Assembly (NCBI GenBank): GCA_964187785.1
Contig: OZ076409.1
Location: 5,768,001-5,832,000, forward strand
From: Amphiscolops sp. MND2022
Taxonomy: Eukaryota
DNA: 64,000 nucleotides
Direction: 5' to 3'
The notes under the pieces are model-generated. The model had not been told where the DNA came from, ran no database searches, and was given only the letters and a program-made list of their open reading frames with translations. How positions within the stretch are numbered: the first letter of the stretch is position 1; every line of letters starts with the position of its first letter. Positions 17,301 to 53,671 of this stretch are shown piece by piece. The translations under genes were made by a program, and so were the position numbers.

Positions 17301-17743
17301 AAATTGTTTTCCGTTTTCGATTTCCTGACTGCAATATGAGACGAAAGTCGAGGACAACTTTCATAACCTATTCTAAACCGTTGTCTTTGAATTGTTTGAG
17401 AACCTTGCCTTTTGCCCTTCCTTTGTATCAAAGAATCGAATGTTTGAGACACTGTACCGTTATAGGAGCTCCAACCTTGGTTTTTTTTGGCTTCGTTGTC
17501 ATTGCAGTTCGCAGGTCTAGTTGAAGTTTCAGACGGTTGAGCGGTGAAAGCTAGTTCCTTCTGGGCTCTTTCTGGCGTCCTTCTGGCTTTTTTGGGCGTC
17601 CTTCTGGGCCTTTCTCTGGGCGTTCTTCCTGGGCTCCTTTTGGGCGTTCTTCTGGGCCCTTTCTCTGGGCGTCCTTCTGGGCCTCTTCCTGGGCGTCCTT
17701 CTGGGCCTCTTCCTGGGCGTCCTTCTGGGCCTTCCTCTGGGCG
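8133..17743. repeat. Tandem triplication of a ~3.2-kb unit (8133-11320, 11321-14532, 14533-17743)
   Basis: Identical ORFs recur at offsets 3188 and 3212; both internal junctions read tctggGCGacagaatgg. Confidence 0.97.
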
Positions 17744-17948
17744 TTCTTGTGGGCTCCTTCGGGCGTTCTTCTGGGCGTCCTTCTGGGCTCTTTCTGGCGT
17801 CCTTCTGGCTTTTTGGGCGTTCTTCTGAGCTCCTTCCTGGGCGTCCTTCTGGGCTCTTTTTGGGCGTTCTTCTGGGCTCCTTTTGGGGGTTCTTCTGGGC
17901 TCTTTTTGGCGTTCTTCTGGGCTCCTTTTGGGCGTTCTTCTGAGCGTC
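17560..17948. repeat. 12-bp GC-rich minisatellite (ctgggcgtcctt variants); truncated copies at 11160-11320 and 14348-14532
   Basis: Directly visible 12-nt periodicity; minus strand reads (AQKD/AQKN)n or (RRTP)n. Confidence 0.95.
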
Positions 17949-17999
17949 CATTTCAAAACAGCTAGTTCCACTTAACCTTAGCTGCCTTTAAGAAAGTTA

Positions 18000-18512: not shown

Positions 18513-20280
18513 ATGGTCAATCCGAAGATAGCAACCCTCACAAACCAGTTCAAACTACATGAATTGAAGTTCCGGAACGCATCCAATTACTTGGCATCTA
18601 GATTGGACTCCGACCAGAATCCTGCTCGTCTGCGTCAAAATTTTGCCCAGTTGCAAACTATTGCATGCAGACTTGAAGAACTGGCCGAACAAATGTCAGC
18701 ACACATGCCTCTTGAAGAATTGGAGCCGTTTCTCCAGATTTCAGCCGACACCTCGCTTCAAATTCTACAAATAGTCGACCAAATTGAAACCCTATCAACG
18801 ACAGAACTCACGCATGCCACTCACAGCCAATCTTCTCCAGGATTTACAGCAGTCCAACTCAGATGCGACGAATTCACAACAACACCAGCAGCCACAGCAC
18901 CCACAACTTCGACACAAAGGGACAGCAGCAGATCCGACAGTCAACAACCCGCTTCTACAGTCACCACGAATCGAGAAGCCACTCACATCTTAGACATGAC
19001 CGGAGACGAGCTCTCTCGTCATCTAGCCACTGCCGAAGACACAAAACTTCCAATGACACCCGACCGCCATCAACACAACAACAGAGGTACACAACCAACA
19101 GAAAACTCAACTACCGTCACCGAGCTAGACAACGTACTTCAGCAACAAGAACCCTCGAGCTTTGGAAACAGCCTTCAACCGCAACACTGCACCAGCACAA
19201 CTGGAAGTAGCTTAATAGCACCTCAACAGCAAGCGAATATGCAAACCATACGACTTCCGCCACCGTTACCACCTCTTCTAAATCAACAAACTTTCAACAA
19301 CCATTACGAACAGCATCATATCTCCAACAGCAACCAGCATTTTCAGCCCACAGTCGACAACATGCTTCCCCAATTGGTCTATACATCCAACTACCATCAA
19401 CCAACCTTTGACACCATTGTTACCCACAACCCTACATACCCGCCAACTGCATACGACATGAGGTCATACGAACCTCGCCACTTATCGCCTGCACAGCCAC
19501 CTCCCAGCCACCCACAAGAACAACTACCGTTCACCCAGTCCACTGGAAATTTATTTAACCCCATACACAACCACTACAGTTTTTCGCCGCCCTGTGAAGA
19601 TGTACTTCACCCACATCAATCACAGCCAACTTACTCTACTACGATCCCTACAGCTGTACCTCATCGTGTGATAGACCCGTCACATCAACTGATAGCAAAC
19701 AACGCTAACTATCCTATACCACCACTGATCCCACAACCTACTATGATTGGACCTCCGGTACCACCTCCTCCATCAACTCTATTCATGAACGATTTCCCAC
19801 GACAACAGATGACCCAAACCAACTTCCGACAGACCGCCAACACTGTGCAGCAGTACTTTGGCACACCAACCATGCCAATCAGTCAAACCGTCTTCACAAC
19901 TCAACCCCAGCACGTTATCAATATACCGACCGATAACAGCTCCGCAACACAGCTAGAACCAACCAATACAGCACTCACACACAACCGCCCATCGTTGCAA
20001 CCTCATCATACCTCAACTGCAGATGCCAACAATTCACCTGCTTGCATCAAATTACCACCCATTCAAATTCCCAAGTTCAACGGTGACCCATTAGCATATC
20101 ACGATTGGATGAATATCTTCAAAGCCACAGTTCACACTAATCACTCAATCACACAAACACATCGCATCACCTACCTCCAAAATTCAGTCACCGGCCAAGC
20201 CAAGGACCTAATTCGTGGATACTCCTGTATCCCTGCATTCTACGATGGAGCCCTGGCTGAGCTCCACTCTCACTTTGGAC
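18513..20280 (+). pseudogene. BEL/Pao Gag N-terminal part (DUF1759-like), truncated
   Basis: IKLPPIQIPKFNGDPLAYHDWMNIFKATVH..RITYLQNSVTGQAKDLI after a long P/Q/T-rich region. Confidence 0.85.
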
Positions 20281-20751
20281 TTCACGACTATTTTAGCAGA
20301 AACAGAGCTGATGCTCCTCAATTCCCGCCCACTCACTCATGTTGCCGATCAGCCGGAGAATGAAGAACCACTGACGCCCAACCACTTCCTACTGCATCGA
20401 CCCTATGCCAACTTACCTCCCGGAGTTTTTGACAGCTCTGAGCAGCCGCTTTCATTTAAATCATGGAAAGAAATTCAGAAAGTGACAAACCACATATGGA
20501 AGAGGTTGCTGAAAGAATACCTCCCTACTCTTCATCCTCGAGGGAAGTGGTCGACTGCCCAACCTCAGCTACGAGTAGGTGATCTTGTCTGGATTCTACG
20601 CGATTTTACGCCTCGTGGAATATGGCCTCTTGGACGAATCGCAGCTACCCACCCTGGGCGAGATGGAGTTGTCCGTGTCTGCACAGTCAAGACAGCCTAC
20701 GGAACCTTCGATCGGCCCGCCGTTTCGCTGTCTCGCGTTTTTGCCCCGTGA
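20281..20751 (+). pseudogene. BEL/Pao integrase C-terminal part (DUF5641-like)
   Basis: LNSRPLT..PLTPNHFLL..WKRLLKEYLPTL..VGDLVWI..WPLGRI..PGRDGVVR. Confidence 0.9.
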
Positions 20752-22319: not shown

Positions 22320-22645
22320 TCACTTTCTGAACTTGGTCGATTCTGGTTTCAACTGCTGCTTCTTGCGTATGTCGACACAATTGAGTCTTTCTGAAAAGTT
22401 GGGGCTGTGGGCGGTGGTCGCTTTGTGAGCCAATCGCAGACTGAGTCGTCTGTAGGACTTGATGGGATTCGCCCTGAACTGGGTCTTGCTTCTGAGTTGT
22501 TTGTACTGCAGGTCGTTCTGCCTCTCCACACGGGCATTCACGGCCGATTCCTCCGCCGCTCGCCGGGCCGCGAAATCTGAGTCGAACTTCTTTCTGTCTT
22601 CCATTCTGTGATCGGTTGACTTTGGCACCAGCGATTCACGCACTT
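22320..22645 (-). CDS. TPX2: TPX2 last coding exon (TPX2 C-terminal domain)
   Basis: tttag acceptor, phase 1; STDHRMEDRKKFD..KQLRSKTQFRANPIKSY..KATTAHSPNFSER; TGA stop. Confidence 0.85.
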
Positions 22646-23084
22646 CTAAAAAGGTTGAAAACATATTTTAATTTTTTAATGGAGATATTAATGATTTAAA
22701 TATTTTAATCAGATTTTTGAAAATTTGCAAAAACGCCCAGATCAATTAGGGTTAACGATTTATCGACCGCGCAGAATTTTTTCAGCTATTCCAATCAGCG
22801 GCAACTTATAGATTGACCGAATTCAGTTCGGAAACTGAATTCGGTTGTAATTTTTATTGAAACATACTTGAAGTCAAACATTGAATAGTTTGAAGAGAAC
22901 GTTTTTCAGCGAAACCGCGAATTTGCAAGTCACTGTTTAGCGAAACAAGACGGGAACGTCTAAAGTTAGCGCTATATCTAAGGCTCAAAAAGCGCAAAGT
23001 TTTTAAAATTGTAAAAGGGGGGACCCTTTCGACTTTTTCAAAATCCAGTTTGTTGCAAAATATCAAAAATTGAAGGGGGGACCC

Positions 23085-24827
23085 TGTAAGAGCCACGTCC
23101 CGTGGTGTCTCTCAAATCACCAACGGACCGCGAGTCCTTTTTCAATAATTTTGTTTTCAAGCCGGATGAATTTTCCCTATTTTCCTGACTGCTAGGGGAC
23201 ATGCTAGCCTCAGTGTCCCTGTTCCCAGAGGAAGACATTGAACTCACAATATTTTGAATCTCTGGTAGCACCTTTTCTGATATGGCAATACTGATTGCCC
23301 TATTTATTTGGCTATGTACCATAGCCATCATGGAATCCATTTCTTGAGACAGTCTAAGATTAAATTCATTTGAGAAAGTTTCAAAAGACTGCCTAACATC
23401 GTTCTGCCTGTATTCACTATTCTCATGGGAGAAGTTTCTATATTCATCCCTTTGGTACAAATTAGCCTCACTATCACTACGAACTGAAGATTGTTCAATT
23501 ACTTCAGTTAACTCTCTCTCTATAGGATTTTCACTCCCGTTACCTAACATTACGTCCAAGTTGTCCATATCGGACATCATGTCCATTTCTCTAGACTTTC
23601 TAGTTTTCGCCTTTTGACGTCTCGTAGAAGGCATGAGAGATTGTTGCAAGAGGAAAGAATTTAAATTGAGATCTTTAAGCTTGCAAATAATATTGTATTC
23701 GGTATTATAACAGCGAACTTGACTGTGACTATTCGTGTGAAGATTATGTCCCCAGGACCACGGGTCCCAGTTATTTATAATCAACTAAACATGACATGCA
23801 TAAAAGTGGTAGTCATCAGTCTAATTTTAGCAACAGGTATTCTAAAAATAGACACAACATACAACGTGTCTTTACAAGTATTTTATCGTAATACTAAAAA
23901 TAGCAACAGGTATGACGTAATTGATTTACGTGCTTCTACATATATGAAGTAGTTACGTTTAAAGATGTACATGTGCCCCTTCAGGCCATCCAATTAAGTT
24001 TCAGTAGCAACATTTCATGTAAAACAATACATACTAAATTATATGAAATAAATACATGCAAAGATGGTGTGTGAACATTGAGCTGTCCTTTATGGCCTTT
24101 TAAGATACAAACAGCTCGTTTTGACTTTCTATCCAGAAAGTTCTGGAAAATAAGAGAACACAAAAGAGGGGGGGAAAGGACTAATGGTCCTTTTGTAGAC
24201 AAGGTGACAGATCTCCAATCAGAGTAAATATACCGCTTCTGAGATAGTACATTATCAATTTCAATATACGCACTTCTTTTATTCTACTTTGGACTCAGTG
24301 TCCACGCGTCCCTATTTAGTACAAGAGTAGCGTCGTTGTGGTGGCGAGTGGCCCTTGAGTCCTTTAATTTAGAATACAGCACAAGAGCGAGCAAATGAAC
24401 AATGCACTGTGATTGGTTGAGAAATTGGACGGACAGCGCGTCTAGCGAGACAGGAAAGGAAACATTTGAACTCGTTTCCTTTACCTGTACGCCTTGGTGT
24501 CCAATTTCTCAGCCGTGGTATATATCTATCACTGTTATACATGTATTAATACACTATATTCAATTTTCAACTACATACTTTACAAGGCTAATTCCGGATA
24601 ATTATTCCAAAGCGTTTCAAATTTCATTAATATAAAAGCCCCGAATAAAATGATATACTTACATAAACATATGCGAAATCAATTACAATAAGATAAGTTT
24701 ATAGTTTGTCTTCTTAGACTTTTGGACTAATAGTCCATTCCTCAGTTCATCGGGAGGGTACCAGGGAGAGTATTGTAGTTGTAGCCGACTGAGTACCAAT
24801 TGCCATCGCAGGCGGCAGCCCGCGACA
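23085..24827 (-). repeat. 3' LTR of element B (1743 bp)
   Basis: Direct repeat of 37207-38951. Confidence 0.97.
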
Positions 24828-25560
24828 CTCCCCCTGGCATAAGTAGAAAAGCGTTTGCGTTCATGCCATCTAGGAATGCTCTCCTCCTTGCCTGAGTCTC
24901 AGCTAGAGTCTCTCCTACAGTTACTGTCCTGTCCAGATATTCATTGACGGTCTCTTCTTGAATTTGTTTGACTGATTTCCCGCATACCACACAGTCTGAG
25001 TAGTTGACTAAGGAGGGGGGCTCGGCAAGGACCATCTCGTCGAAATGACTTGCCACCGCTTCCATTGACGTGTTCATGGATGATGGTGAATCGTCATGAG
25101 GTTCACATGGGTATTGTAGTCCTCTGTCCTGTTCAGGTGGAGATAGCGGGGTGTCCACTTGCGGTACTAAATTTCGGCATATATTTATGGGGTGATTAGA
25201 TTTGATCCTGTTGTCCCGACTTACAGGCCCATTTCCCCTTGCCAAGCTGAAGTACTTCTCCCCAAAGGTAGGAAATGGTGGCACATTTGGCCTGGGCGTC
25301 ACAGGTCTTTTCTGCTCCTGACCGGCTGAGGTTGAAGGAATTGATATGGGCTCCGCAAGTTGTCTTTCAATGCATTTGGCCATGAGTCTAATCTCGTCTG
25401 ATTCGTCTTCGGACGACAAGTTCAAGTCATCCACAGACCACCCACAATTCGAGTCCATCGCTTCCTCTTCGTCGCTAGAGATGTATATGATTGTCGGTTC
25501 CCCTTCTGATCTTGCTGCTCCGATGAAGTCCATCGGGAAGGTCTCGGAGATGTCTGACAT
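24742..25560 (-). CDS. Accessory ORF of element B (272 aa, unknown function), ends inside the 3' LTR
   Basis: ATG-to-stop ORF; acidic N-terminus with IIYISSDEEE; CVVCGK motif; no recognisable env signal peptide or TM segment. Confidence 0.75.
   Translation of the reverse strand: MSDISETFPMDFIGAARSEGEPTIIYISSDEEEAMDSNCGWSVDDLNLSSEDESDEIRLMAKCIERQLAEPISIPSTSAGQEQKRPVTPRPNVPPFPTFGEKYFSLARGNGPVSRDNRIKSNHPINICRNLVPQVDTPLSPPEQDRGLQYPCEPHDDSPSSMNTSMEAVASHFDEMVLAEPPSLVNYSDCVVCGKSVKQIQEETVNEYLDRTVTVGETLAETQARRRAFLDGMNANAFLLMPGGVSRAAACDGNWYSVGYNYNTLPGTLPMN
24828..24835 (-). promoter_or_regulatory. Polypurine tract of element B
   Basis: AGGGGGAG immediately before the TG of the 3' LTR. Confidence 0.75.
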
Positions 25561-26776
25561 AGCTCGGATTTTGAAGATTTTCTTTGCAATTTTGATTGTT
25601 TTCCTGTTGGAATTTAGGTGTTGTTGAAATCAACTGATTTTCAGCAGAGGAATTGAGATTATGGCGATCTCAGTTTCCTTCGACCGCGAGTCTCTTCGTC
25701 TCTCCTTTCCCGGGTTTTCACATTTCCCGGCAAGTAATTCTTCAATAACAGATTCCGCTTCTCTTGTTCTTTTATCATGCCGCCAAGACACTTTGTAATT
25801 GCCGACATCAGTTTTATTGACCATCATCAGCTAGGCTAATACTTCTAAGTTAGGAGAGTTACTTCAAGTGTTTATTAACACTCATCAGGTACTTGAGAGA
25901 CTCAAGGAGATAAAGTTATGGCAGTCAGCCACGCCGGCCTTCATCAATATGATCAACCAATAAGATTGCAGCAAAATTTCTCCCAAGTTAAAATGGCTTC
26001 TCAAGGTTGTAAATCCATATAAGGAATAATATAAAATGACCTTGAAAACGGAATAAAATGAAATAAAATAAAATAAAATAAAAACATGGAATAATTTTGC
26101 AAATAACAGTTTTCGAAATTAATGGAAAAGTAGATATCACTGGCAGCCTTTATCCACATATTTCCATAAATTGTAGATACTTGTAAATTTGACACCAAAT
26201 TGTATAGCCACGATCTCCAATCTTGACATCTTGTCACAACGCCAATTCATCTTTCAATTCTTTATCATTCAGTTGTACTATTCACTTCTTGTATTATCCA
26301 GTATTTAATCACCAACGTATTTACTCATCGTATATTTAACCAGTTATTTAGTCTTTGAGTCGTTTTTATTTATATTTTCCACTCGTCTTCAACACAGGAC
26401 TCAGTGTCCATTCGTCCTCATCCCCGTGGGTTTCCTCAACTTCTCCCGGAAAATCGACATCCAGTCCCAATTTTGGACGTCCCCATCTAGCTGTCAGCTC
26501 GGCTCGACTTATCTACACAAATATCACTTACCGACTCCCCCGCATTGGAATACTAACAGGTCAGTTGTTCTTCATACATCTTCATTAGCTAGGCTAGATT
26601 TTTGAACTAAATTGAGGCTTGATCAGGGCTCTCTTTTCGTTCAAGTACTTCCTGTCCACGTAACACGAGTGTTCACAAGTGTTCAATTTAATCTACTTCC
26701 GGAAGATTTTTTAACGCGGTTAATGGATTTTAACTCAGGAAGCTTGCCGCTTGAATTCAATTCTTTCTATTTAGAC

Positions 26777-29700
26777 ATGTCGTCTGAAGAACAAATCGCC
26801 GGCACAATTCTTCCAACATCAGAGAATCCCGAGGTTGCCGTAGAGACCAATACAGCACCAAAGGAGCCAGTAGTGATAACTCGTCCTGACTCCAACCAGT
26901 CATCTAGTAGTGGAAACACTGAAGAGAGCATAACCACATATGCGGAGAAAACTTTACGGACACTGGCTAGTGATAATCCTTCTCTGGATATTTCATTTCT
27001 CCCGGCACCGACACTACCTGAAGATGGAACAGCAGGGCCCATAAAGGTTTCCCAGTCGATAGGTTTTGAACGTCTAGGAAAGGAAGCCTTCTCACTCGAC
27101 GGCATGCAAGAAACTGGTAGCTACATTGAGCCACGGGACAAGAGCAAGGAGTACTTTGCCACTGATACTAGTGAGGCTGGCGAGCTGCTTGACGAGATGG
27201 GTACTGAAGGAACGCGTAAACGGCCTACCTCAAGCATTACCTGTTCTGAATTACCATCTGCAACCGAAGGTGCTGCCGGACAAGATACAGATGGTACTAC
27301 GTCTGGAGTCGCAAAGTCTGGGTTCCGAGAGGTGAAATTACCAGAACGATTTTCGGCTAATGGACAGGCTGTTTTAAGGAAACATTTCTCCTCATCTGCC
27401 CCAATTGAATTGCCTAAAGGTCACAGTACTGTTTCATTCAGTGAGCCGCAAATACATGCCGTCCTCAAAACCATATCAGATGAAACTGTGAAATCATCCA
27501 TCCATGCCATGCGTTCCCTTGTCTTACATGCTGTTTATGGGGCAGGAAAGCAGACTCCTGGACAGTTCCGGAAATCAATGGTTCGAGGCGTGGTCCCTAC
27601 ACGAGGCGATCCCAATAGCTCAGGTGCTGATACAGAAAGTGAGGGAGGAATGACAGACGATTATACGAGCGGAGCCCTCACCTCTGATGATGAGCTCGTT
27701 GTTGCAGCCAGGCCACGCTGTGGGACGCCACTACCAAGAGAACGTTCTGGCTACCCAAATACTTCCGATGGAGAGATGGATAGGACTCCTAGTACCAGCC
27801 ATACCACAGTCCCTAGTCCAGGCTACAGTGAGGGAGACTACCAACCTCTAAGTGCCATGCGGGTAGAAGACCAACCACGACGACCTGGAGGCAGTCCGCC
27901 GCGCAAGAAGCGGAGGTACGTGGGCAGACCTGGCAAAGTCATGAAGGCTGCCCATTTCAAAAGTATTCAGTGGACCAAGGTCTTCGTAACTGGACCACTA
28001 GATCCTGTGCATAACAAGCACAAATTCTACTGCCAAATTTGCAAGGCGAACGTGTCAATCTATTCCAAAGGGGCCAGAGAAATCGTGAGACACTACCAGA
28101 GTGAGACCCATCTGCGCAAAGACCAACGATGGCGCTACGAACACCTTAGTAGGGTGGACAAAATCAGTGGACAGATTGTCCATGCAGTTAGAGGGAGGGA
28201 CGGACATCTCCTTTCCGCTCTAGAATTAGAGAAGAAGCCACGTTTCGAATCGGCTCCATTAGTGGATATTGGCCCTAGATTTCCCTTTTACGACGACTAT
28301 ATGGCCAATGCTGGGGGAATTGCATGCCCCGAAGATTTGAGACTGGGTACTCAACTTTCTTTGATTGGACGAGCGGTCCCACATTTCGGCAATCTGACTG
28401 TACTGGAGAGACTGTGGGCCGAGGTTGGGAATTTCACCAATCATCAAGACACTTTCCGACAGCTTGATTGGAGTTCGCTCACGCTCACTGTAAGTCTTTC
28501 CATTCTTTCTAGAAGTTAGGACCACTAAGCGTATGAATTTTGAAAGTGTACCTTAATCCACTAAGTCTGTTGAGCCATAGTTTGCCCTTTCCAATTTTTG
28601 GTGATTTCGTTTTGTTCTAGGCCATGTTTCACCACATCTTTTTGCGCGGAATGGAGGATATAGCCCAGTCCGTGAATTCCTGCGGCGCATACTCTCTGGA
28701 GTTTGAACCACACGGAAATCAGTGCATCCTTTCAATCAGATACTGGAAGGCGAGTACCCTGGCCAAAGTTCAATTGTGCAAGTACCCACTGCCTTCGGAC
28801 CCGGGCCCCAGTCAGTTACTGATGATTTCACGCCTACTGTCCTCTCTTTCCACGCTGCCACAAATTGCCTGTGTATCAGGTTGTACTTCCGAGGTGTTGC
28901 GATCAGTTGAGCGTTCCGGGCTGTTCAAGAAGGGCATCGAGTACCCATTCCGCTTCAATGCCTTTTCTCTTCCCAAGCTAATGCATCAGCTTGAAGGGAG
29001 TGTGTTCGGACGAATTGACTTCTTCACACAGCTGAAGTACCTTCTGGCCTTCCTCAACAACAGTCTAGATGAGCCTTGGATGTCTTCTTGCCCAGAACTG
29101 ACCAAGGTTTGAATTAATATTGCTGGACTCGTATGTTTGCACATTGTTTGTGCGTCTCACAGCACAGAGTGTTCCTTTTAGGCTATAATCAATTTCGACT
29201 TGAAGATACGGTGCGTTCCGACTATTTGTACTGACTTGATCAGCAACTGGCAGCCTCTTCTTGACCACCTGACCAGACTTGCCCCTGGCTACGAAATGCG
29301 AGGAGTTAAAAATAAGGTTTCGATTTTTCCTTGTACCTGTTTCGGTTTTCTTCTCATGACGTACGACCCCAGGATCACTATCCATTAATTGCTTGAGTTC
29401 CCTTTTAGCCGCAGAGTCTTGAGTGGACTATCATCACCGATGACTTCTTCTTAGTCAAGTTGGAATTCTTTGGAAAGATCATCTATGATTGTGAGTATTG
29501 CTTTTGTTTCAGAGGGAATTTACTCGTGATCGTTCACGTAGTTTCTTTGCAGGGACTCACTAGGTAAGGCTTTGTACTCAAAGGTCTATTTCCCTGTTTA
29601 GATACTCGTTGCTTTGAGAGAAGTCTAGTTGGACACAGGGACGCTGGTTTCTTCACCTTTGGGCAGTTGAATAATTTTGCCCGTAAGCTATGCTATCGCT

Positions 29701-30761
29701 CTTTGCTCCCCAAGCACCATCCTAGCGAAACCGATTGGACTCAACTTCCCATTCTGCGAACTGCTGAATTGCGACAACTCTCCACCAGGGACTTTCTTCA
29801 CCGCTTGAAATTGAAAGAAGATCTAGACGGAGCTGCTAATTCTAAGGTCAAGCGGGACTACAGTGACAAGGAAGGGCCAATACCTAATTTCCCCAAACTC
29901 GTTGAGGAATGCAAGGAGAAGTTCGCTGGAAAAGCAAGGGGTTATGTGGTCTACCTTCTTGAGAAGCTGCTAGCGCATCACAGCATCAATGCTGAGATTG
30001 TGAAGGGAATGGCCAGTTTTGACCCACACATCCTCTTGAGTCTGCCTCGAGACCAGGCGACCTATTGTTACCGGGCACTGTATAACAGCTTCAATCTCCG
30101 TGGATGGTTGGAAGGATCCTCTGAAGACGACTGTCGGGACGAGTACCTCGAATTTATCGACTTATTTCGCGAAAAGTATGCTACTCTGGAAGATTCGCCT
30201 GATGGTTTTACTGATATGGTGGAATTGTTGTCTAATATGACTGAGCTCCGAAGTCGACCTCATTTGTATCGTTTATTTCGATTGTGTTGCTTGTGCTTGA
30301 CAGAGGACACCCCTTTGCTTCCGACTATCCGTTTCCAGGATGTTGACGCACAGAGTCCTCGGTGTAGATTGGGTGACGTGTTGCTTCCTGCTCAGTCTTT
30401 CCTAGCACGAGCCCCTGACGCCATCTCGGTTTGCACTAACGATGTCTCTTTGTGTAAATATCGTGAGGTTGAGCAGCAATTCAATTCTGGCAATGTGGCT
30501 GGTGACCCTTGGGTCCACGTCGACACTTTTGGGCGAGCTGATTTTTATAAGACTCTCCAAGCCGCTTACGAATCTGTGGTCCGAGTGCCGAGGTCAGCTT
30601 CCTCGAGTAAGACTGGTTCGCGTTCTAATTCTCCTGCTGCAGTTGGTCGGCGTAAATCTTCTCCTGGGAAAGCAAAAAAGAAAGTTTCTTTTGATGGCTC
30701 CAATGCTGTGAAGGGTACCACAGACGGCCAAGAAGCTGGACAGAAGGCCACTAAATCTTAA
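26777..30761 (+). CDS. Spliced antisense gene of element B: BED-type zinc finger + degenerate hAT-transposase-like protein (~1191 aa); exons 26777-28489, 28621-29106, 29182-29316, 29409-29490, 29602-30761
   Basis: GT-AG introns with compatible phases 0,0,0,1 give one open frame; NLS SPPRKKRR; FYCQICKANVSI..IVRHYQSETH; YSLEFE..ILSIRYW; DDFFLVKLEFF; RPHLYRLFRLCCLCL. Confidence 0.8.
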
Positions 30762-30983
30762 ATGTACATATGTACATTTGTTCTTTAGTCTGTTATTTTG
30801 TATTTAACATGAACTAACTGATCTTCCTTTTTTTGTTGAAGCTTTTGTGGATTGCTTGTTGACCCTTGGGTCTCTTTTATTGTTTTTTATTGTATTTATT
30901 TGAAAAGTTCAGAGTCAGAGTAGTCCCAGTAAAAATATTAATTTAGTCCAAGAGACTTATGGGACTTTAATTTACATGTCTGA

Positions 30984-33900
30984 CTAGTATCTGTATTCAT
31001 CAGTGAAGTTGGGGGTGGGGTTAGGTCGAAGATTATATTTCCCTCCTCTAGGGCTAGAATTTTCTTCATTTTTTCCTTTTTCCGATATTCCGGGCACGGT
31101 AATATCTACGCCCCTTTCTGAAGCAATTTCCTCATTTGTGACGTCATTTTGATTTTCCGTCCCACGTGGCGTTTCGTCTAGCGGGGACGACGCGTTACGG
31201 TTGCTGGCCGATCTCGGCCGTACTTCATTCTCGTTGACGTCATTGTCATTCATTCTCTCGCTGCTGCGCTCACTTTCGTTTACGCTGCTGCTTTCATTTT
31301 CGGTGACGTAATAGTCGACTTCTCCGTTCGCGGCGTCCTGTGGCAGACGCGTGGCCGTATGTGGCCAATCATTTATCTTCGGCTCGAATAGCTCGTACTC
31401 AAAGTCCGCTTCCCATGAAATGGTATACAGATCATCTTGCGGTATTACGATTTCTTCATCGGGCTGTAATTTCTCTTCTTCGTATTTGTCCTCTAGTGGA
31501 GCATTTGGGACAAATTTTTTGAGCCTTATCCGGTGCAAGATTTGCGTTTTATTCGTATTTAAACGACGCACTATATAATTGTTATTTGGTAAAGTTTTTT
31601 GAACAACAAAAGGACCAATCCATCGGAAGTCCCTAAATGGTATCTTAGAGCCTTGACTATCCGCTTTCGGTTGAAGAACAAAACAGTAGTCTTTCTCTTG
31701 TAGCGGAGCTGCTTTGGCCTTGCGGTCGTAGTACTCCTTGTACTTTAAATACGACTGCATAATATTCCTTTTGGTTTGATCAATGAGGATTTGTGTCCTC
31801 TGCTGCAATTCTTCCGCGAGTTCAGTCGTCGGTAGGAAATTTTTGTTAGGATTATTCCCTAATTTGTGATCCAGGACGTTATAGGGAATTCGGCCATGAA
31901 AGACTTTGCTAGGCTCACAACCAATACTAGCGTGATAAGTAGTGTTATAGTTAAGTACAGCTAATGGTAAATATTTGTGCCATTGACGACGGTATTCCCC
32001 TGAGGCCATCTTTAGGTTGGTTTTTAAAGAGGCGTGTGTCCTTTCAAGTTTACCAATAGTTTGCGGATGTTTAGTAGTGGCACACTTCAATGTGATCCCC
32101 AGTATTGCAGTAATTTCTTCTAAAATTTTTGATGTAAATGCGGATCCCTTGTCCGTGATGAGTGTTGTTGGCAAATACGAATGTTTCGTCATGATGTCAA
32201 TTATCACCTTGGCTACGTTTGCGGCTGTTGCCTCAGTTAGCGGGTAGGCGAATAAATATCTTGAAAATACGTCTATTGCCGTCATCACCGTTTGGTATCC
32301 GCCGCTGGTTGGTAAATTTGGCAGTATATCGATTTGCATGGCATCTTCTGGGCCTAGGTCCCATTCAGGTAAATTCAGTAATTCTGGGGTGATTACCGTG
32401 TTGGGGACCCTTTTGTCCTTGGCACATATTTCGCAGCCTTCTACCCATTTTTTGACGTGTTGAGCAATTCCGGGGTAGTAATATTTTTGGCGAATTTCCT
32501 GTAACATTTTAGAGATGCCCGGGTGTCGATGTGCCGTGCCATGTATTGCCTGTAATAATTCTTGGACTAAGTGTTTCGGTAACAGAATTTGATGGTATTT
32601 GATCTGGCCGGTTTCATCATAATACAGTCTGGTCACGATTTCGTCCTTAAGGACTATTCGGTCTATGTTGTTCAAATAGTATTTGTACCGAATATCCTGT
32701 TGCAAGATTTCTTCAGAGTATTCTTCCTTCTGAATTTTTGCTTTCAATTGGAGCAAAATCGGATCTTTAGACTGTTCAAGTAGTATCTGGTTAGTCCGTC
32801 GTAATTTTTGAGAGAAATTGGTAATTTCTTCTATTGTATTTTCGGATATGGCGTCAATGTGAATGACTGTCTCAGGGACCATGAGTCCCTTTTTGGATTG
32901 TTTTTTCCGTTCCCAAATCTGTTCTTCTGTTTCGTTATCTTCCTCAGTGAAGAAAATTTGCTCCTCCTCTGACACGCCGGCTGATTGGACGTTGACCTCA
33001 ATCGGTCTAGTTTCTACGTCCTCTCGTATTTTCAGGACCAACTTTTCAGTAGGATCCAATTCCATACGGGACAAGAAGTCTGCCGCTGTGTTGTTTTTGC
33101 CTGGAATGTGAGCTATAATGAAGTTGAACTGAATGACAAAATCACAAGCATTCCAGAGAGGCGGTGGAATTATCTTTGTCTGGAAGAACCTCGTGACCGA
33201 TTTGTTATCTGTGAGGATAATCACGGGTTGAGGTGTTCCCCAGAAGATATGTCCAAACTCCTTAAATGCGTAATATATAGCTAGGAATTCCTTTGCATAT
33301 ATCGACATTTTCAGTTGAGAAGGCGTGAAAGTTTTGGATCCATATGCAATCGGCGCATAGGACTTTTTAACAGAAGTGTATTTTTGATTTGGGTCGTCTT
33401 CGGTCAATATGGCGTAACCGGCTGCTGTAAAACTTGCGTCAGTCATGAGGACCAGTTGTTTGTTCGGCAGAGGTTGTTTCAACGCCAATTGACTACATCG
33501 GTCTAAATCACGGTTGATCGCATTAAATTGTTCAACCAGCTCTTGCGTGACTAGTACCTTTTCATCCTTTTTGAGCAATTGGAAGAAGGGAACTAGTTTT
33601 TCGGATAGCCTTGGAATATAATTCCTGTAGTAATTGAGGAAACCAATATAGCGTTGTAAGGCCTTCTTGGACTTTGGGAATTTCGTCTTTTCCAAGAAGT
33701 TAGCGATTCTTTCTTTTTGGGGCTTTACGCCTTCAGGTGTAATGGTTCTCCCAAGAAAGTCAATTTCAGTAGCGCCGAAATGGCACTTGTGCATGGACAA
33801 TTTCAATCCTGCTTCTCTGATACATTGGAACGTTGCTCTTAAGTTGACGATAAGCTGGTTAGCGTCTGTCGCCGCGACACCGATATCGTCCACATATTGA

Positions 33901-36077
33901 GCACATTGGTCTGCTTTTATAACACGGTCCAGGTATTCCCTCATGAAACTGGAGAAGGCCGACAGGGCTCTACTGAGTCCTTGGGCCAATCTTCTATATG
34001 CAAATGTCCTGCTGGCGAAGTTGAAAGCTAGCATTTCAATCGATTTCTGGTCTGCCATAGGAAGGCAATGATAGGCTTGGGAACAGTCGAGTTTGCAAAC
34101 GAGCTTTTTGCCTGCCATATGTTGCGCCGCATCCGTCAAGGTGCTGACTGGGTGGTTGTTATTGACGTAGTCATCTGAAATCAGATTATTGATCTTCCGC
34201 AAATCCACCAACAGTCTCAGTTTTCCATTGGGTTTTTTCTGCGCAAATATTGGACTGGCATACTTCGAGAATGGTAATGTTGTTATAATCCCATATTTAT
34301 GGAGTAATGCCAGTTCGACCAATATGTCCTCTTTGAGGTTGACCGGAGTAGGTAGGCTCTGACTGTAAGCAGGCGACTCGTCCTTTGGGGTCAGTTTGAC
34401 CGTAAATTCCTCATTGACTCCAATGTCAAATCTATGGCGTGCAAAGATGTCATGGAATTCCACTAATAGAGTTTCTATTTGTCTGATTTCATGTTGTAAC
34501 ATTGAGTCCTTCCAATCAAAATTGCTGAGGAATTTTCGACGAGATTCCGCATCGTCGTGCGGGTTGAGTTGTTCTAAACTTTGCAGGTTTCGTAATTCTT
34601 TGAGAATTCTTTGTTGTATTGGGGTATGGGTCGTTTCGTCCCCTGGGTTTTCAGGCGTCGGGAACCAATATTGTTCGTATTGGTCATTATTTCTGTTAGC
34701 TTTAAGAAGGCTACTAATATAATAAATGGCGTCGTCTTCATTTTCATTCAGTAAGTGCCAGGTGGACACTGGGTCTATTGGCCTGACGTGTTTCATCTGT
34801 TCAGGGGTCATCACTGAAAAGTTTGCAACGTGCATCCCTTTCTTTATTTTATAGGGTTGATCAGTGAAATTGTTGACGTGTATTCTCATAGCCCCTTCAT
34901 GTAGTGTGACTATGGCGGCACAGATGGTTATGTCACCTTCCTCATGCAGAAGATCGCTGGGTTGCAATATGCCCGTAACTGCATTTTCTGCGTAAATTTG
35001 CGATTGAATGGGTATGACCACATGGTCATTGGGCGAAATTGTGACATCCTCAGGATTGAGGATGGGTTCCAAAACATTTGAGTATTTATGGTCAGCCGTC
35101 TTAAGTTGCATCGAGAAGTAGGGAAAGTTGAGTATACCTTGGCGCATGTCCAGGACAGTGTGGTTCCTTTGAAGGAACATTAGTCCAATTATGGGGCTTG
35201 ACAGTTTTTCCATTACAATGAAAATTTCGTGAAATTCTATGTCGCCCACTTCGAATTTTAGTTCGACTGTGCTCTTTGGGGTTTCTAAGTCTCCATTTGC
35301 GACCATTATTTGGAAGGATGGGGCAGGACCTTCTTTTACAATGGATTGAGGGGCCAACAGGCGTATTTTCCTGAGGTCTGCCTCCGGGATTGCACTGGAG
35401 TGAGCTCCAGTGTCTATCAGGCCATCTAGAGTTAATTCCCCAAAGTCCATTGGGAAATAGAGCATTCGTCGTTTGAATTTAAGTCCAAGGTTTGTTGAAA
35501 GGGGAACGTATGGTAATTCTCCTTCTTTGGTCACTAGGAGGTGTAAGAAGGCTGTCTCGTCTAAAAGACTATTAGGAGCCTTGTGGTCCTCCTGTGTGTG
35601 TATAGCGTCTACTTCTTGTATAGTTGCTTCAAAGTTCGGCTGCCAAAGATCAATGAGGGCCCGAGACAGTGTGTTGTGTTCGATGTCTGGGTCGTCCTCG
35701 TCGTCAGTTGGAGGGTAATCTTCGTTTCGAAATTGTAAATTTGTTTTGTCATATAGTTCGTCGTCCCAGTACGGGTCTTTGCCATACTCGGGGTCATAGT
35801 ATTGAGGGTTATAATCTTCGACAGTTTGTAAGGGTCTAAATTGAGTTTCGGAGTCGTTGTAATTGCTATTCCGTCGATATAGGTATGGGTGATCACTGTG
35901 AATGATATATTGAGTTTCTTTGCGGGCGTCGGCCATCTGCTGCTGCCAGACAGTCGATGGCATCCCTGTGGTGTCGTTTTGAGTTTGTTTATATGTAATG
36001 TTTGCAGGGTCAGATATGACGTACTGTCGTACTGACATCTTGTTACATATTTGGAGTCGTGGCGAAACTAGTTTTTT
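30984..36077 (-). CDS. pol: Pol of element B (protease, dUTPase-like insert, RT, RNase H, integrase), probably reached by -1 frameshift
   Basis: LIDTGA; YVDD; TDAS/EFLA/TDNK; H-H-C-C finger, TDKGSAF..ERTHASLK; WIGPF; 1684 uninterrupted codons from the first ATG. Confidence 0.97.
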   Translation of the reverse strand, partial: KKLVSPRLQICNKMSVRQYVISDPANITYKQTQNDTTGMPSTVWQQQMADARKETQYIIHSDHPYLYRRNSNYNDSETQFRPLQTVEDYNPQYYDPEYGKDPYWDDELYDKTNLQFRNEDYPPTDDEDDPDIEHNTLSRALIDLWQPNFEATIQEVDAIHTQEDHKAPNSLLDETAFLHLLVTKEGELPYVPLSTNLGLKFKRRMLYFPMDFGELTLDGLIDTGAHSSAIPEADLRKIRLLAPQSIVKEGPAPSFQIMVANGDLETPKSTVELKFEVGDIEFHEIFIVMEKLSSPIIGLMFLQRNHTVLDMRQGILNFPYFSMQLKTADHKYSNVLEPILNPEDVTISPNDHVVIPIQSQIYAENAVTGILQPSDLLHEEGDITICAAIVTLHEGAMRIHVNNFTDQPYKIKKGMHVANFSVMTPEQMKHVRPIDPVSTWHLLNENEDDAIYYISSLLKANRNNDQYEQYWFPTPENPGDETTHTPIQQRILKELRNLQSLEQLNPHDDAESRRKFLSNFDWKDSMLQHEIRQIETLLVEFHDIFARHRFDIGVNEEFTVKLTPKDESPAYSQSLPTPVNLKEDILVELALLHKYGIITTLPFSKYASPIFAQKKPNGKLRLLVDLRKINNLISDDYVNNNHPVSTLTDAAQHMAGKKLVCKLDCSQAYHCLPMADQKSIEMLAFNFASRTFAYRRLAQGLSRALSAFSSFMREYLDRVIKADQCAQYVDDIGVAATDANQLIVNLRATFQCIREAGLKLSMHKCHFGATEIDFLGRTITPEGVKPQKERIANFLEKTKFPKSKKALQRYIGFLNYYRNYIPRLSEKLVPFFQLLKKDEKVLVTQELVEQFNAINRDLDRCSQLALKQPLPNKQLVLMTDASFTAAGYAILTEDDPNQKYTSVKKSYAPIAYGSKTFTPSQLKMSIYAKEFLAIYYAFKEFGHIFWGTPQPVIILTDNKSVTRFFQTKIIPPPLWNACDFVIQFNFIIAHIPGKNNTAADFLSRMELDPTEKLVLKIREDVETRPIEVNVQSAGVSEEEQIFFTEEDNETEEQIWERKKQSKKGLMVPETVIHIDAISENTIEEITNFSQKLRRTNQILLEQSKDPILLQLKAKIQKEEYSEEILQQDIRYKYYLNNIDRIVLKDEIVTRLYYDETGQIKYHQILLPKHLVQELLQAIHGTAHRHPGISKMLQEIRQKYYYPGIAQHVKKWVEGCEICAKDKRVPNTVITPELLNLPEWDLGPEDAMQIDILPNLPTSGGYQTVMTAIDVFSRYLFAYPLTEATAANVAKVIIDIMTKHSYLPTTLITDKGSAFTSKILEEITAILGITLKCATTKHPQTIGKLERTHASLKTNLKMASGEYRRQWHKYLPLAVLNYNTTYHASIGCEPSKVFHGRIPYNVLDHKLGNNPNKNFLPTTELAEELQQRTQILIDQTKRNIMQSYLKYKEYYDRKAKAAPLQEKDYCFVLQPKADSQGSKIPFRDFRWIGPFVVQKTLPNNNYIVRRLNTNKTQILHRIRLKKFVPNAPLEDKYEEEKLQPDEEIVIPQDDLYTISWEADFEYELFEPKINDWPHTATRLPQDAANGEVDYYVTENESSSVNESERSSERMNDNDVNENEVRPRSASNRNASSPLDETPRGTENQNDVTNEEIASERGVDITVPGISEKGKNEENSSPRGGKYNLRPNPTPNFTDEYRY
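36068..36077 (-). promoter_or_regulatory. -1 ribosomal frameshift site A AAA AAC followed by TAG
   Basis: gag frame TCA AAA AAC TAG; -1 frame AAA AAA CTA GTT is open into pol. Confidence 0.75.
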
Positions 36078-36172
36078 GAGTCCGTTTTACGTGAGTTTGA
36101 TTGGCTTGAAGATGCAGTTTCAGGGTTAGTTGACTTTTTGGACGATTTTTCATCGCCAGAGGTGTCATCAGC

Positions 36173-37756
36173 CTAATCCTCAGGACGTGTCCTTTTGGGT
36201 CGTAAATGTGCTCCAGCCCCTTTCCAGCATCTTTCAACAGGGTGATTTTTCTTTCCGCAAGTAGGGCATTCTGGGTATGTAGGACGTTGGGGCTTTTTGC
36301 CATTTTTGTCCTCCAGTTCTTTCTTCTTCTTCAATTTAGAGCAGCTCTTATAGAAGTGGCCTGTGGCTTTACAATAAGAGCATTGTGCGTCCTTTTTAGT
36401 ATTTATGCCATTAGAGAGCAAATTGTTGTTACTGGTGGACGCAGAGGCCATTGTAGCGATTGGTAAATCGTCTGACTCTTCTAATGCGTTGAGTTCAAGC
36501 TCTCTTTCAAGATGAGCGACGATTTCTTCATATGTCCCGTTCTCCAGGCGGGCCATATTGACAGATCGTTTCAATTTTGGAGGCAGTTTTGCGTATAATA
36601 AGCTGTCAATCATGCTTTTTGCATTTTCGCCGAAAGCTTTTTCTGCCCCCTGGTTCAGTTCTTCCAAGAAATCCGGCAATTTCATGGTATTCGGATCGAA
36701 AGTCAGCCGATGCCATTTGTGTTTTGCCGTTGCTTGGGATTCCGGTTTGACGTATTTCCTCCGGAATATGATTAGCACATCCTCGAGTGTTTGGCGGTTA
36801 ATTGAGTTTATGTTCCTGAAGGTCTGCAGGGCCCCTTTTCTGAGCAATGAGTGAAAATGGTTTATTTTCATTTGCTCTGTCATGGCCGGTTGCATTTTGA
36901 TCATTGTGTGGAACAAATCTTCAAAGAGTTCGAATTTCTCACTCTTTCCGTCAAACGTCATAGGTGTCGTTTGGACAGGTCGGATAGTCATCGTTTGGGG
37001 TTTATTTTGCAAATTGACTAGTACATCAGCCAATCTATTGAGCGGGTCCTGAGGCTGCTCTGTGACCTCTGGTTCTGGCGCTGGCAGAGTGGTGTCCAAA
37101 GAGACATTGTGGTTAGACTGCTGTCTCTCTAGGTTCGGGATTGAGTGGATTCGTCCAGTGAGAAATTCAGGTATAGGCTGTTGGGCTTCGTTAGCTCCTG
37201 TCACCATGTAAGAGCCACGTCCCGTGGTGTCTCTCAAATCACCAACGGACCGCGAGTCCTTTTTCAATAATTTTGTTTTCAAGCCGGATGAATTTTCCCT
37301 ATTTTCCTGACTGCTAGGGGACATGCTAGCCTCAGTGTCCCTGTTCCCAGAGGAAGACATTGAACTCACAATATTTTGAATCTCTGGTAGCACCTTTTCT
37401 GATATGGCAATACTGATTGCCCTATTTATTTGGCTATGTACCATAGCCATCATGGAATCCATTTCTTGAGACAGTCTAAGATTAAATTCATTTGAGAAAG
37501 TTTCAAAAGACTGCCTAACATCGTTCTGCCTGTATTCACTATTCTCATGGGAGAAGTTTCTATATTCATCCCTTTGGTACAGATTAGCCTCACTGTCACT
37601 ACGAACTGAAGATTGTTCAATTACTTCAGTTAACTCTCTCTCTATAGGATTTTCACTCCCGTTACCTAACATTACGTCCAAGTTGTCCATATCGGACATC
37701 ATGTCCATTTCTCTAGACTTTCTAGTTTTCGCCTTTTGACGTCTCGTAGAAGGCAT
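36173..37756 (-). CDS. gag: Gag of element B (likely start MPSTRRQK inside the 5' LTR)
   Basis: MTFDGKSEKFELFEDLF capsid-like region; two CCHC knuckles CSYCKATGHFYKSC and CPTCGKKNHPVERC. Confidence 0.9.
   Translation of the reverse strand: MPSTRRQKAKTRKSREMDMMSDMDNLDVMLGNGSENPIERELTEVIEQSSVRSDSEANLYQRDEYRNFSHENSEYRQNDVRQSFETFSNEFNLRLSQEMDSMMAMVHSQINRAISIAISEKVLPEIQNIVSSMSSSGNRDTEASMSPSSQENRENSSGLKTKLLKKDSRSVGDLRDTTGRGSYMVTGANEAQQPIPEFLTGRIHSIPNLERQQSNHNVSLDTTLPAPEPEVTEQPQDPLNRLADVLVNLQNKPQTMTIRPVQTTPMTFDGKSEKFELFEDLFHTMIKMQPAMTEQMKINHFHSLLRKGALQTFRNINSINRQTLEDVLIIFRRKYVKPESQATAKHKWHRLTFDPNTMKLPDFLEELNQGAEKAFGENAKSMIDSLLYAKLPPKLKRSVNMARLENGTYEEIVAHLERELELNALEESDDLPIATMASASTSNNNLLSNGINTKKDAQCSYCKATGHFYKSCSKLKKKKELEDKNGKKPQRPTYPECPTCGKKNHPVERCWKGAGAHLRPKRTRPED
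37189..37206 (-). promoter_or_regulatory. Primer-binding site of element B (inside gag coding sequence)
   Basis: TGGTGACAGGAGC directly after the LTR-terminal CA. Confidence 0.75.
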
Positions 37757-38951
37757 GAGAGATTGTTGCAAGAGGAAAGAATTTAAATTGAGATCTTTAA
37801 GCTTGCAAATAATATTGTATTCGGTATTATAACAGCGAACTTGACTGTGACTATTCGTGTGAAGATTATGTCCCCAGGACCAGGGGGCCCAGTTATTTAT
37901 AATCAACTAAACATGACATGCATAAAAGTGGTAGTCATCAGTCTAATTTTAGCAACAGGTATTCTAAAAATAGACACAACATACAACGTGTCTTTACAAG
38001 TATATTATCGTAATACTAAAAATAGCAACAGGTATGACGTAATTGATTTACGTGCTTCTACATATATGAAGTAGTTACGTTTAAAGATGTACATGTGCCC
38101 CTTCAGGCCATCCAATTAAGTTTCAGTAGCAACATTTCATGTAAAACAATACATACTAAATTATATGAAATAAATACATGCAAAGATGGTGTGTGAACAT
38201 TGAGCTGTCCTTTATGGCCTTTTAAGATACAAACAGCTCGTTTTGACTTTCTATCCAGAAAGTTCTGGAAAATAAGAGAACACAAAAGAGGGGGGGGGAA
38301 AGGACTAATGGTCCTTTTGTAGACAAGGTGACAGATCTCCAATCAGAGTAAATATACCGCTTCTGAGATAGTACATTATCAATTTCAATATACGCACTTC
38401 TTTTATTCTACTTTGGACTCAGTGTCCACGCGTCCCTATTTAGTACAAGAGTAGCGTCGTTGTGGTGGCGAGTGGCCCTTGAGTCCTTTAATTTAGAATA
38501 CAGCACAAGAGCGAGCAAATGAACAATGCACTGTGATTGGTTGAGAAATTGGACGGACAGCGCGTCTAGCGAGACAGGAAAGGAAACATTTGAACTCGTT
38601 TCCTTTACCTGTACGCCTTGGTGTCCAATTTCTCAGCCGTGGTATATATCTATCACTGTTATACATGTATTAATACACTATATTCAATTTTCAACTACAT
38701 ACTTTACATGGCTAATTCCGGATAATTATTCCAAAGCGTTTCAAATTTCATTAATATAAAAGCCCCGAATAAAATGATATACTTACATAAACATATGCGA
38801 AATCAATCACAATAAGATAAGTTTATAGTTTGTCTTCTTAGACTTTTGGACTAATAGTCCATTCCTCAGTTCATCGGGAGGGTACCAGGGAGAGTATTGT
38901 AGTTGTAGCCGACTGAGTACCAATTGCCATCGCAGGCGGCAGCCCGTGACA
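37207..38951 (-). repeat. 5' LTR of element B (1745 bp)
   Basis: Direct repeat of 23085-24827. Confidence 0.97.
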
Positions 38952-40673: not shown

Positions 40674-40866
40674 AACCGGCCGAATTCGGCGCCGTATCTA
40701 AAGCTCAGAAATGACAAAATGACATGAAAGTGTCAAAACTCAAAGTATCAACCTCACAAAAAAGTATCAGTGATACTTTTTTGTGAGGTTGATACTTTGA
40801 GTTTTGACACTTTCATGTCATTTTGTTATTTCTGAGCTTTAGATACGGCGCCGAATTCGGCCGGTT
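40674..40866. repeat. 193-bp near-perfect palindrome (96-bp arms, 1-nt spacer)
   Basis: Centre aagtatca-g-tgatactt at 40770; one mismatch seen. Confidence 0.95.
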
Positions 40867-53600: not shown

Positions 53601-53671
53601 TTTTTAGTCGGCGCTTTTCGTAGAAAAACGCAGACTATAGTAGTGACATTTCTTTTTTTAGGACCAACAAA

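Follow-up and report, generated by a model that had tools for sequence, protein, structure and literature searches.

A third sense reading frame (ORF3) of 272 codons, which crosses the polypurine tract (PPT) and ends in U3 of a Ty3/Gypsy retrotransposon, is almost certainly a real gene under selection, as judged from comparison with its sequence relatives. It represents a previously undescribed protein family, with known precedent for extra 3' ORFs in animal Gypsy elements, and its interpretation as an accessory protein, retrovirus-style by analogy, is well supported.

The element and its third reading frame

In the window (the whole 64-kb stretch of DNA that was analysed) the element and ORF3 have the following features.

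23085..38951, minus strand: full-length Ty3/Gypsy LTR retrotransposon of 15,867 bp, recognized by its LTRs, the target duplication GGGTC and the pol domain order
37207..38951, minus strand: 5' LTR, 1745 bp, from comparison of the LTR pair
23085..24827, minus strand: 3' LTR, 1743 bp, from the same comparison
36173..37756, minus strand: gag, which begins within the 5' LTR and continues across the putative PBS, with Pfam DUF1759 and a weak Retrotrans_gag match
30984..36038, minus strand: pol, 1684 aa open, from Pfam domains and a PDB match
24828..24835, minus strand: PPT, AGGGGGAG, coded within ORF3 codons 242-245
24742..25560, minus strand: ORF3, 272 aa, ATG to TGA, conserved gene with a presumed accessory role
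24742..24827, minus strand: U3-coded end of ORF3, from VSRAAACDG (containing C251) to PGTLPMN-stop
25561..25593, minus strand: in-frame basic leader K-I-A-K-K-I-F-K-I-R-A, with 10 relatives in frame

Both LTRs have TG...CA ends, the target duplication is 5 bp long, and the identity of the pair is 99.4%, with 8 substitutions and one 2-nt indel within the LTRs. The element is young and its lineage is high-copy; the ORF3 clusters looked up include some with 163, 136, 70, 66 and 55 members. The Pfam domains of pol follow the order PR, dUTPase-like, RT, RNase H (RH) and integrase (IN), and the top PDB match is Ty3 Gag-Pol (E 7e-45). The putative PBS, TGGTGACAGGAG, stands after position 37207, with TGG directly following the 5' LTR, and a tRNA gene scan of the 64-kb window returned none. 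An AATAAA at 24283-24278, within the 3' LTR, is likely to be the polyadenylation signal. The start of the 5' LTR repeats the last 28 codons of ORF3, and the first 183 codons of gag also lie inside this LTR. A scan for the pol locus found a single contig, L001, which is 1.1 kb long and does not include the 3' region. TPX2-like coding pieces are located beside the element; a Gypsy element next to such pieces places the host among the eukaryotes, and the host is presumably an animal.

A sequence-only reading had proposed that a 272-aa ORF runs across the PPT and stops 86 nt inside U3, and the coordinates bear this out: the 3' LTR starts in codon 245, and 86 nt of ORF3, including the stop codon, are in U3. 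The position of the other end is less certain. Above the ATG the frame stays open for another 23 codons, and a basic leader of 10 codons recurs there in relatives. Among 365 proteins surveyed, the leader (K-I-A-K-K/R-I-F/I-x-x-R) was found in frame, 11-14 codons above the Met, in 10 N-extended gene calls from several subfamilies, and in none did the stretch above the Met occur in the other two frames; P0037 has the variant K-I-T-R-K, P0019 a worn version, and in P0365 the leader is absent. As the leader recurs in frame, the true start of ORF3 may be upstream of the ATG. In the window DNA the leader Ile codon is ATT at 25590, position -3 being A and +4 being G, and a non-AUG start that would add the leader to ORF3 has about an even chance of being used; alternatively, the stretch may be a conserved DNA element. 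A 361-aa form beginning in an upstream 65-codon ORF was rejected as the protein of the family, because P0085 and P0090 have a stop as the window does and the frame changes in other subfamilies; read-through of the 65-codon ORF into ORF3 was seen in two copies (P0092 and P0093). Longer forms of 554-2000 aa were found in 0 of 7999 scored candidates, which is weak evidence.

Relatives of ORF3 are numerous. The single-sequence search returned 83 clusters with 33-97% identity, all of them unnamed ENA gene calls, and the profile search (E 0.001 or better) 466 representatives with identities down to ~25%; each of the 150 profile matches listed is at most 316 aa long. Locus scans with the ORF3 alignment gave 269 pattern matches in viral contigs and 595 in JGI metagenomes, none of them a relative. 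Seventeen clusters were looked up, and ten of these comprise 607 members, 141 of which were listed. By a pattern test combining full length, the acidic motif, the CxxC and the C-terminal end, 81 of the 141 listed members appear intact and 60 are short or altered, in a non-random sample that contains the ten cluster representatives and was drawn by a search recovering open frames only. The Met and a size of ~260-285 aa are kept across clades.

It could be argued that ORF3 has no function, being either a chance frame held open by PPT and LTR constraints or the decaying remnant of a captured host gene or env. Codons 242-250 are doubly constrained as PPT and LTR end, and both the bias of the search toward open frames and the 60 short or altered members would suit such an explanation. 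The cis constraint, however, covers less than 15% of ORF3, conserved blocks are interspersed with frame-keeping indels, no named or longer host protein was matched in single-sequence and profile searches, and there is no membrane anchor. Neutral simulation (substitution-only, 2000 runs, 21 of 31 alignment rows scored) failed to reproduce the open frame, which survived in 3/2000 runs at 54% protein identity and in 0/2000 at 44%. Mismatches in six subfamily rows (48-63% identity) had a mean BLOSUM62 score of -0.16 to +0.05 against a neutral expectation of -0.61 to -0.74 (sd 0.13-0.16); this signal of conservative substitution is weaker at 31-38% identity and gone in most rows below, and in rows under ~31% the presumably disordered part aligns poorly. 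Taking these observations together, we consider a non-functional ORF3 extremely improbable.

The overlap with the PPT appears to be shared by the relatives. Of the 95 rows, 92 have V or L at position 245 and 89 have S at 246, with P-G/R-G in front. Codons for this stretch are able to encode a run of purines and then TG-TC, and it is probable that the whole family shares the PPT/U3 overlap, as estimated from the protein alone.

Conserved motifs and predicted structure of ORF3

Four stretches of the protein stand out.

25462..25491, minus strand: SIM-like core IIYI with SSDEEE (CK2-type site), residues 24-33
25381..25419, minus strand: second acidic patch with EIRLM, residues 48-60
25135..25155, minus strand: DTPLSPP, proline-directed phosphosite-like, residues 136-142, conserved
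24859..24993, minus strand: CxxC (C190, C193) with a helical hairpin, residues 190-234, from model and conservation

The motifs named in the sequence-only reading were found in place, TIIYISSDEEE at residues 23-33, LSSEDESD at 48-55 and CVVCGK at 190-195. Its further statement that env features are missing was also correct: the highest 19-residue hydropathy mean is 0.86, the protein is acidic (41 D/E vs 21 K/R), with an acidic N-terminus, and Pfam assigns it to no family. Hydropathy over the 272 aa revealed no transmembrane segment or signal peptide, and within the same 272 aa there is neither a classical NLS nor a myristoylation Gly.

The accessible part of PMC12751080 defines a SIM by a core of four residues, three of them V/I/L, next to a flank that is acidic or can be phosphorylated and that suits CK2; the IIYI-SSDEEE of ORF3 fits this definition. 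In 20,000 shuffles of ORF3, a hydrophobic core followed by five S/D/E appeared in 0.2%, and one followed by three S/D/E in 3.6%. With a relaxed pattern, 19 of the 29 non-redundant members show the core with S/D/E in this position; one more match, in P0044, lay elsewhere in the protein and was dropped. Of the ten members in which the core is missing, six group in a single clade (100/100). In four of these six the second acidic patch carries a reverse SIM-like motif, e.g. DSDIEVI, whereas of the remaining two one is without the second-patch region and one fails the reverse pattern. DSDIEVI resembles the motifs ESEVEVIHV and DSEVEIVTV quoted in the same accessible part of PMC12751080. Counting any SIM-like pattern, 27 of 29 members are positive vs 3.2 expected from shuffles, although the members are related and the reverse pattern was defined post hoc, after looking at the data. 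The SSD of the acidic flank is among the most conserved N-terminal columns and is better kept than the hydrophobic core. The second patch of the window's protein forms the start of a weakly predicted helix and is therefore ill-suited to be a SIM strand. SIMs are, moreover, described as loose and easily gained motifs (PMC12751080, accessible part). As to the conservation of the motifs, the CxxC is kept (see below), and the SIM-like core is kept in the 19 members and was lost in one clade. The SIM reading is supported by conservation, but is not universal in the family, and binding of SUMO by ORF3 is plausible on this pattern, with a chance that we put slightly above even.

Since hydrophobic-acidic stretches also form activation domains, the same residues can be read differently. 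ORF3 might be an acidic transactivator of the LTR with a role like that of foamy virus Tas or HTLV Tax, in which case the antisense protein (see below) would bind DNA and SUMO would be incidental. The N-terminal half is net acidic and apparently disordered with spaced F/I/L/M residues, F8 and the SSD are conserved, ORF3 stands head-to-head with a BED-like gene, and its location resembles that of retroviral regulators, all of which would be expected of a transactivator. What weighs against it is that 19 of 29 members have the core in an unchanged position; over such divergence, activation domains seldom retain a constant core of four residues with a CK2-type flank. We therefore regard a transactivator as unlikely.

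Conservation of single columns was surveyed in 29 hand-assembled members (26 non-redundant at 70% and 3 partial distant ones). From the N-terminus to the middle the best-kept columns are F8, S28-D30, A61, E65, C128 and P138/S140/P141, and in the C-terminal part H172, CxxCG, E217, R227-G232, P242-G253, Y256 and P270. In the 95-row alignment C190 is kept in 89 rows, C193 in 88 and C251 in 90; the TPxSP site, the CxxC, the third Cys and the PPT/att-coded residues are kept family-wide. Motifs of this kind could also mark a signalling decoy or substrate, mTORC1-like, with a TOS-like F-x-M/L/I-D/E near the N-terminus and PIxIP and TPxSP downstream. Of 26 members scored, 15 have F-x-[MLIV]-[DE] above the SSD, and the accessible part of PMC8439657 gives FEMDI as the TOS of 4E-BP1, which works with a RAIP motif. 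These patterns are, however, short and low in information, several clades have E at position 3 (FPEDF) and PIxIP is missing in distant members, making a TOR decoy very unlikely.

The full-length model of ORF3 is poor (mean pLDDT 44.8; 43-46 over residues 11-50, with a shallow alignment). In the model of residues 100-272, which was built on the 95-row alignment, the 10-residue pLDDT means reach 91-96 over 190-229, and the sole confident fold is the CxxC with the two helices after it; the models show just short helices, and there is no GTPase-like domain in that of 100-272. C190 and C193 may bind zinc together with two of C128, H172 and C251, as suggested by their conservation. A RING needs eight zinc ligands, and only C128, H172, C190, C193, C251 and partly H123 are conserved; neither a RING family nor another known enzyme fold was found for the CxxC and helices by Pfam or in the model.

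Database searches gave no name to the family. Pfam returned 0 families for ORF3 itself and only single-member weak matches for 32 aligned members, one of which, to the Rad50 zinc hook (E 0.023), was not trusted. The ORF3 profile had 0 matches in PDB, the ESM Atlas yielded no usable match with the whole protein or residues 180-272, and Foldseek against pdb and viral structures gave nothing at E 0.001 or better, with only residues 100-272 modelled usefully. The top VIA score (Z 4.3) concerned the helical hairpin only. No homology or fold of a viral fusogen was detected in Pfam, PDB, Foldseek pdb/viral or VIA, and with the search for longer forms included, no known env or host gene was matched. 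The absence of family, structure and fold matches does not show that the fold is new. The sequence-only reading had named three outcomes as counting against an accessory protein, namely disruption of the frame in most copies, motifs that are not conserved and a match to a known env or host gene; none of these was observed, and its proposal of a retrovirus-style accessory protein stands as an analogy.

The antisense gene, expression and possible roles

Upstream of ORF3 lies a gene of opposite orientation.

26723..30761, plus strand: antisense gene in pieces 26723-28519, 28624-29112 and 29568-30761, with GT...AG intron-like gaps placed by eye
25561..26722, strand not assigned: 1.16-kb spacer that separates ORF3 from the antisense gene in their head-to-head arrangement, possible site of an internal promoter

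A BED-like W...CxxC...H-x5-H pattern was recognized by eye in the first piece (26723-28519), and Pfam gave weak C2H2 matches only, with no zf-BED or hAT dimerisation match in the antisense gene; PDB gave no name either. The gene may resemble a hAT transposase. Its last piece has 77 relatives (33-95% identity) with a well-kept core, and by its sequence the gene is a conserved, intron-bearing family, the exon structure being drawn by eye. Relatives of ORF3 and of the antisense gene were located on contigs of exactly equal size in 16 pairs, among them an ORF3 clade at 34% identity, and identity to the window's genes is correlated between the two (rho 0.71, p 0.002); 7 of the 16 pairs come from 66 single-contig representatives of the single-sequence ORF3 search, and 9 are cluster members picked after the match had been seen and scored at the representative's identity. 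On these sequence data the pairs show co-inheritance, not contact.

The ORF3 ATG is 5.4 kb behind the pol stop, and a subgenomic RNA would therefore be needed. Donor-like sites are GTAAGT at 26531 (minus strand, in the spacer) and a site at 38608 in the LTR, and the 1200 nt above the ATG contain no acceptor with at least 11/17 pyrimidines. An internal promoter in the spacer is favoured by analogy: in Tor3b/4b of Oikopleura such a promoter can drive the third ORF (PMC4402516, accessible part), and maize Grande provides a precedent for an internal promoter (PMC7264820).

Another possibility is that ORF3 is a factor for export or stability of unspliced genomic RNA, similar to CERV or Rev, and perhaps the last exon of a spliced product. 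A CERV-type factor is needed for genomic RNA export and has H, M and GTPase-like G domains (PMC10309623). The conserved Cys residues and TPxSP site of ORF3, the donor-like site at 38608 and the conserved in-frame leader are compatible with such a factor. On the other hand, ORF3 is acidic, has neither an Arg-rich RNA-binding stretch nor, in the model, a GTPase-like domain, keeps its Met and size across clades, and is preceded by no pyrimidine-rich acceptor, so that an export factor seems distinctly unlikely.

In the mechanism that we propose, ORF3 would be translated from a subgenomic mRNA, started at the spacer promoter or made by splicing from the LTR and ending in the 3' LTR, and its product would act as a nuclear adaptor. 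Phosphorylated by CK2 on the SSDEEE flank, the acidic N-terminal motifs would dock onto chromatin factors that carry SUMO. At the C-terminal end, the Cys-rich helical module would coordinate zinc and contact a partner, possibly the LTR-bound antisense protein, and this DNA-binding-like protein would target ORF3 to the element. As a net effect, SUMO-dependent silencing would be loosened or transcription of the element raised. According to the accessible parts of the sources, SUMO takes part in ERV silencing (PMC7472088), and there are two precedents for the proposed role. HSV-1 ICP0, a viral SIM protein, counters SUMO-based repression via its SIMs (PMC3174244); unlike ORF3, it is a RING ubiquitin ligase, and ORF3, being without a RING, is not an ICP0-type ligase. 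VANC of the VANDAL DNA transposons is an element-coded, family-specific reliever of silencing in plants, but acts on plant DNA methylation (PMC6719617). The whole chain from adaptor to a pro-element role on chromatin is tentative, and we rate it below an even chance; that ORF3 opposes silencing, or that it works together with the antisense protein, is conjecture with indirect support from the co-occurrence of the two genes.

A SIM is as apt to attract repression as to counter it. ORF3 could thus bind SUMO and restrain the element, recruiting repressors for self-limitation or copy-number control. This explanation shares the evidence of the SIM-like motif, SUMO is tied to repression, and broad anti-silencing would harm the host, the known TE anti-silencers being narrow (accessible part of the review PMC6719617). 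The lineage, however, is high-copy and young (LTRs 99.4%), a pattern at least equally compatible with a helper, and we find self-restraint quite improbable.

Known systems and implications

The closest parallel in description is CERV of Cer1, a C. elegans Ty3/Gypsy element (PMC10309623). Like ORF3, it is a non-env ORF in the interval separating pol from the 3' LTR of an animal Gypsy element, has no homologs outside its own lineage, contains a conserved Cys cluster and a phosphosite, and has an accessory role. In contrast, CERV has 517 aa, is spliced, shares gag exons and has a GTPase-like domain and predicted rings, whereas ORF3, with 272 aa, is apparently mostly disordered, acidic, SIM-like and PPT/U3-overlapping; no homology to CERV emerged from the searches. 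The non-env ORF3s of bdelloid rotifers (PMC5408684) and the env of Oikopleura Tor (PMC4402516, accessible part) are likewise third sense ORFs of invertebrate LTR elements, and three rotifer lineages share the dUTPase-like domain between PR and RT (PMC5408684). In the accessible parts of these two papers, however, the products are fusion proteins, GDSL esterases, DEDDy nucleases and TM/coiled-coil proteins, and in Pfam searches neither ORF3 nor its 32 aligned members matched any of the rotifer or Tor third-ORF families. The plant Tat/Retand/Grande elements have a long region between pol and the LTR with conserved extra ORFs, and an antisense gene with its own promoter and a nuclear product, with a transposase-like domain in Retand (PMC7264820). 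They differ in that the review (PMC7264820) has no sense non-env ORF across the PPT, and in that the present element carries a sense and an intron-bearing antisense gene head to head.

Complex retroviruses offer the analogy on which the accessory interpretation is built. HIV/SIV nef, foamy virus bel2/bet and MMTV sag have frames that cross the PPT into U3 and encode small regulatory products, and HTLV pX has sense and antisense regulators at its 3' end. The comparison with nef, bel and sag made in the sequence-only reading proved right as to the U3 overlap, but homology was not found: the likeness to these genes and to pX is positional, with no sequence or fold match in Pfam, PDB or Foldseek, and ORF3 has neither a myristoylation Gly nor a TM. 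As the element is a Gypsy without env, the layout that it shares with the retroviral U3-overlapping genes is probably convergent.

In the accessible literature, neither the ORF3 protein family nor the head-to-head cassette was found described, nor any retrotransposon accessory protein bearing a SIM. All three are absent from the accessible parts of PMC13524379 and PMC13269885, and the accessible parts of two acoel genome papers describe no such ORF; the search covered papers rather than Repbase and supplements, and an entry in a repeat library could exist.

These results suggest that a Gypsy lineage independently evolved coding across the PPT and U3, as in nef and bel, and retained it while the ORF3 protein diverged to ~30% identity. 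The wider question behind ORF3 is how animal LTR retrotransposons reach high copy number despite piRNA- and SUMO-based silencing; for TE-coded counter-silencing, the accessible part of the review PMC6719617 names only plant cases. ORF3 offers a large, old and unannotated family whose motif is short and testable, and within which one clade, having lost the first SIM-like motif and showing another, serves as a natural contrast. We give low credence to the fullest version, an animal Gypsy lineage with a complex-retrovirus-like 3' cassette in which a SUMO-binding counter-silencer is paired with a DNA-binding gene directing it to the LTRs of the element itself. If SUMO binding fails, ORF3 is still a new accessory family, of interest mainly to transposon specialists. 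If true, the fullest version would mean that VANC-like, family-specific anti-silencing exists in an animal and is exerted via the SUMO pathway.

The gag start and the gag-pol junction

The 5' LTR of the Gypsy element holds the start of gag, so that 183 gag codons are LTR sequence, and the open gag frame crosses the PBS. The relevant segments are as follows:

37756-37207, minus strand: gag start region within the 5' LTR, with a copy at 23634-23085
within 36175-36069, minus strand: slippery-type heptamer A-AAA-AAC with pol-frame overlap

In Ty1 the gag start also lies within the LTR, but over a few codons only, as against the 183 codons found here. It was also observed that protein-coding sequence is present at both ends of the element's LTR. 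In the window's copy the gag frame stops at 36173-36175 (minus strand), about 34 codons upstream of the heptamer, at which the pol frame overlaps.

Between the PR and RT regions of pol, residues 329-411 form a dUTPase-like domain, whose score against PF00692 (21.4 bits) is slightly below the cut-off of 22. The same placement between PR and RT has been reported for rotifer and basidiomycete elements.

ORF3 and the antisense gene

Upstream of ORF3, the 272-aa accessory frame, a 65-codon ORF (25630-25827, minus strand) lies in the same frame and is separated from it by a single stop codon, which is variable among copies. The clade of ORF3 relatives that lacks the first SIM-like core (P0225, P0344, P0208, P0260 and P0279) has an additional conserved cysteine (CGE/Q/L) immediately upstream of the CxxC, and the motif M-[DE]-[VI]-D after the first acidic patch.

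The gene lying head-to-head with ORF3 is interrupted by intron-like gaps:

26723-30761, plus strand: the antisense gene, divided by several such gaps with GT...AG ends

It is conserved in 77 relatives, and a Pfam search gave no name for it. A gene with introns can survive retrotransposition only if it lies antisense to the element.

Neighbouring repeats and the insertion site

Several other repeats were found in the window:

about 7750-17950: tandem array of near-identical units of about 3.19 kb, which contain an 11-12-nt subrepeat
18513-20751, plus strand: internally deleted BEL/Pao-like remnant with DUF1759 and DUF5641
40674-40866: near-perfect palindrome of 96 bp with a 1-nt spacer
53624-56943, plus strand: two broken C-terminal pieces of non-LTR retrotransposons with CCHC and endonuclease-like patterns and a weak zf-RVT match

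The sequence into which the Gypsy element inserted (flanks 23070-23084 and 38952-39000) is a dispersed repeat of the AAAGGGTCCCC type, which recurs across the window. Just past the 3' LTR lies a TPX2-domain piece (22320-22664, minus strand; E 6e-08), and past the 5' LTR a second piece (42081-42536, minus strand) carries motifs that look similar to those of the first, without a Pfam match. The Gypsy element may have inserted within an intron of a TPX2-like gene.
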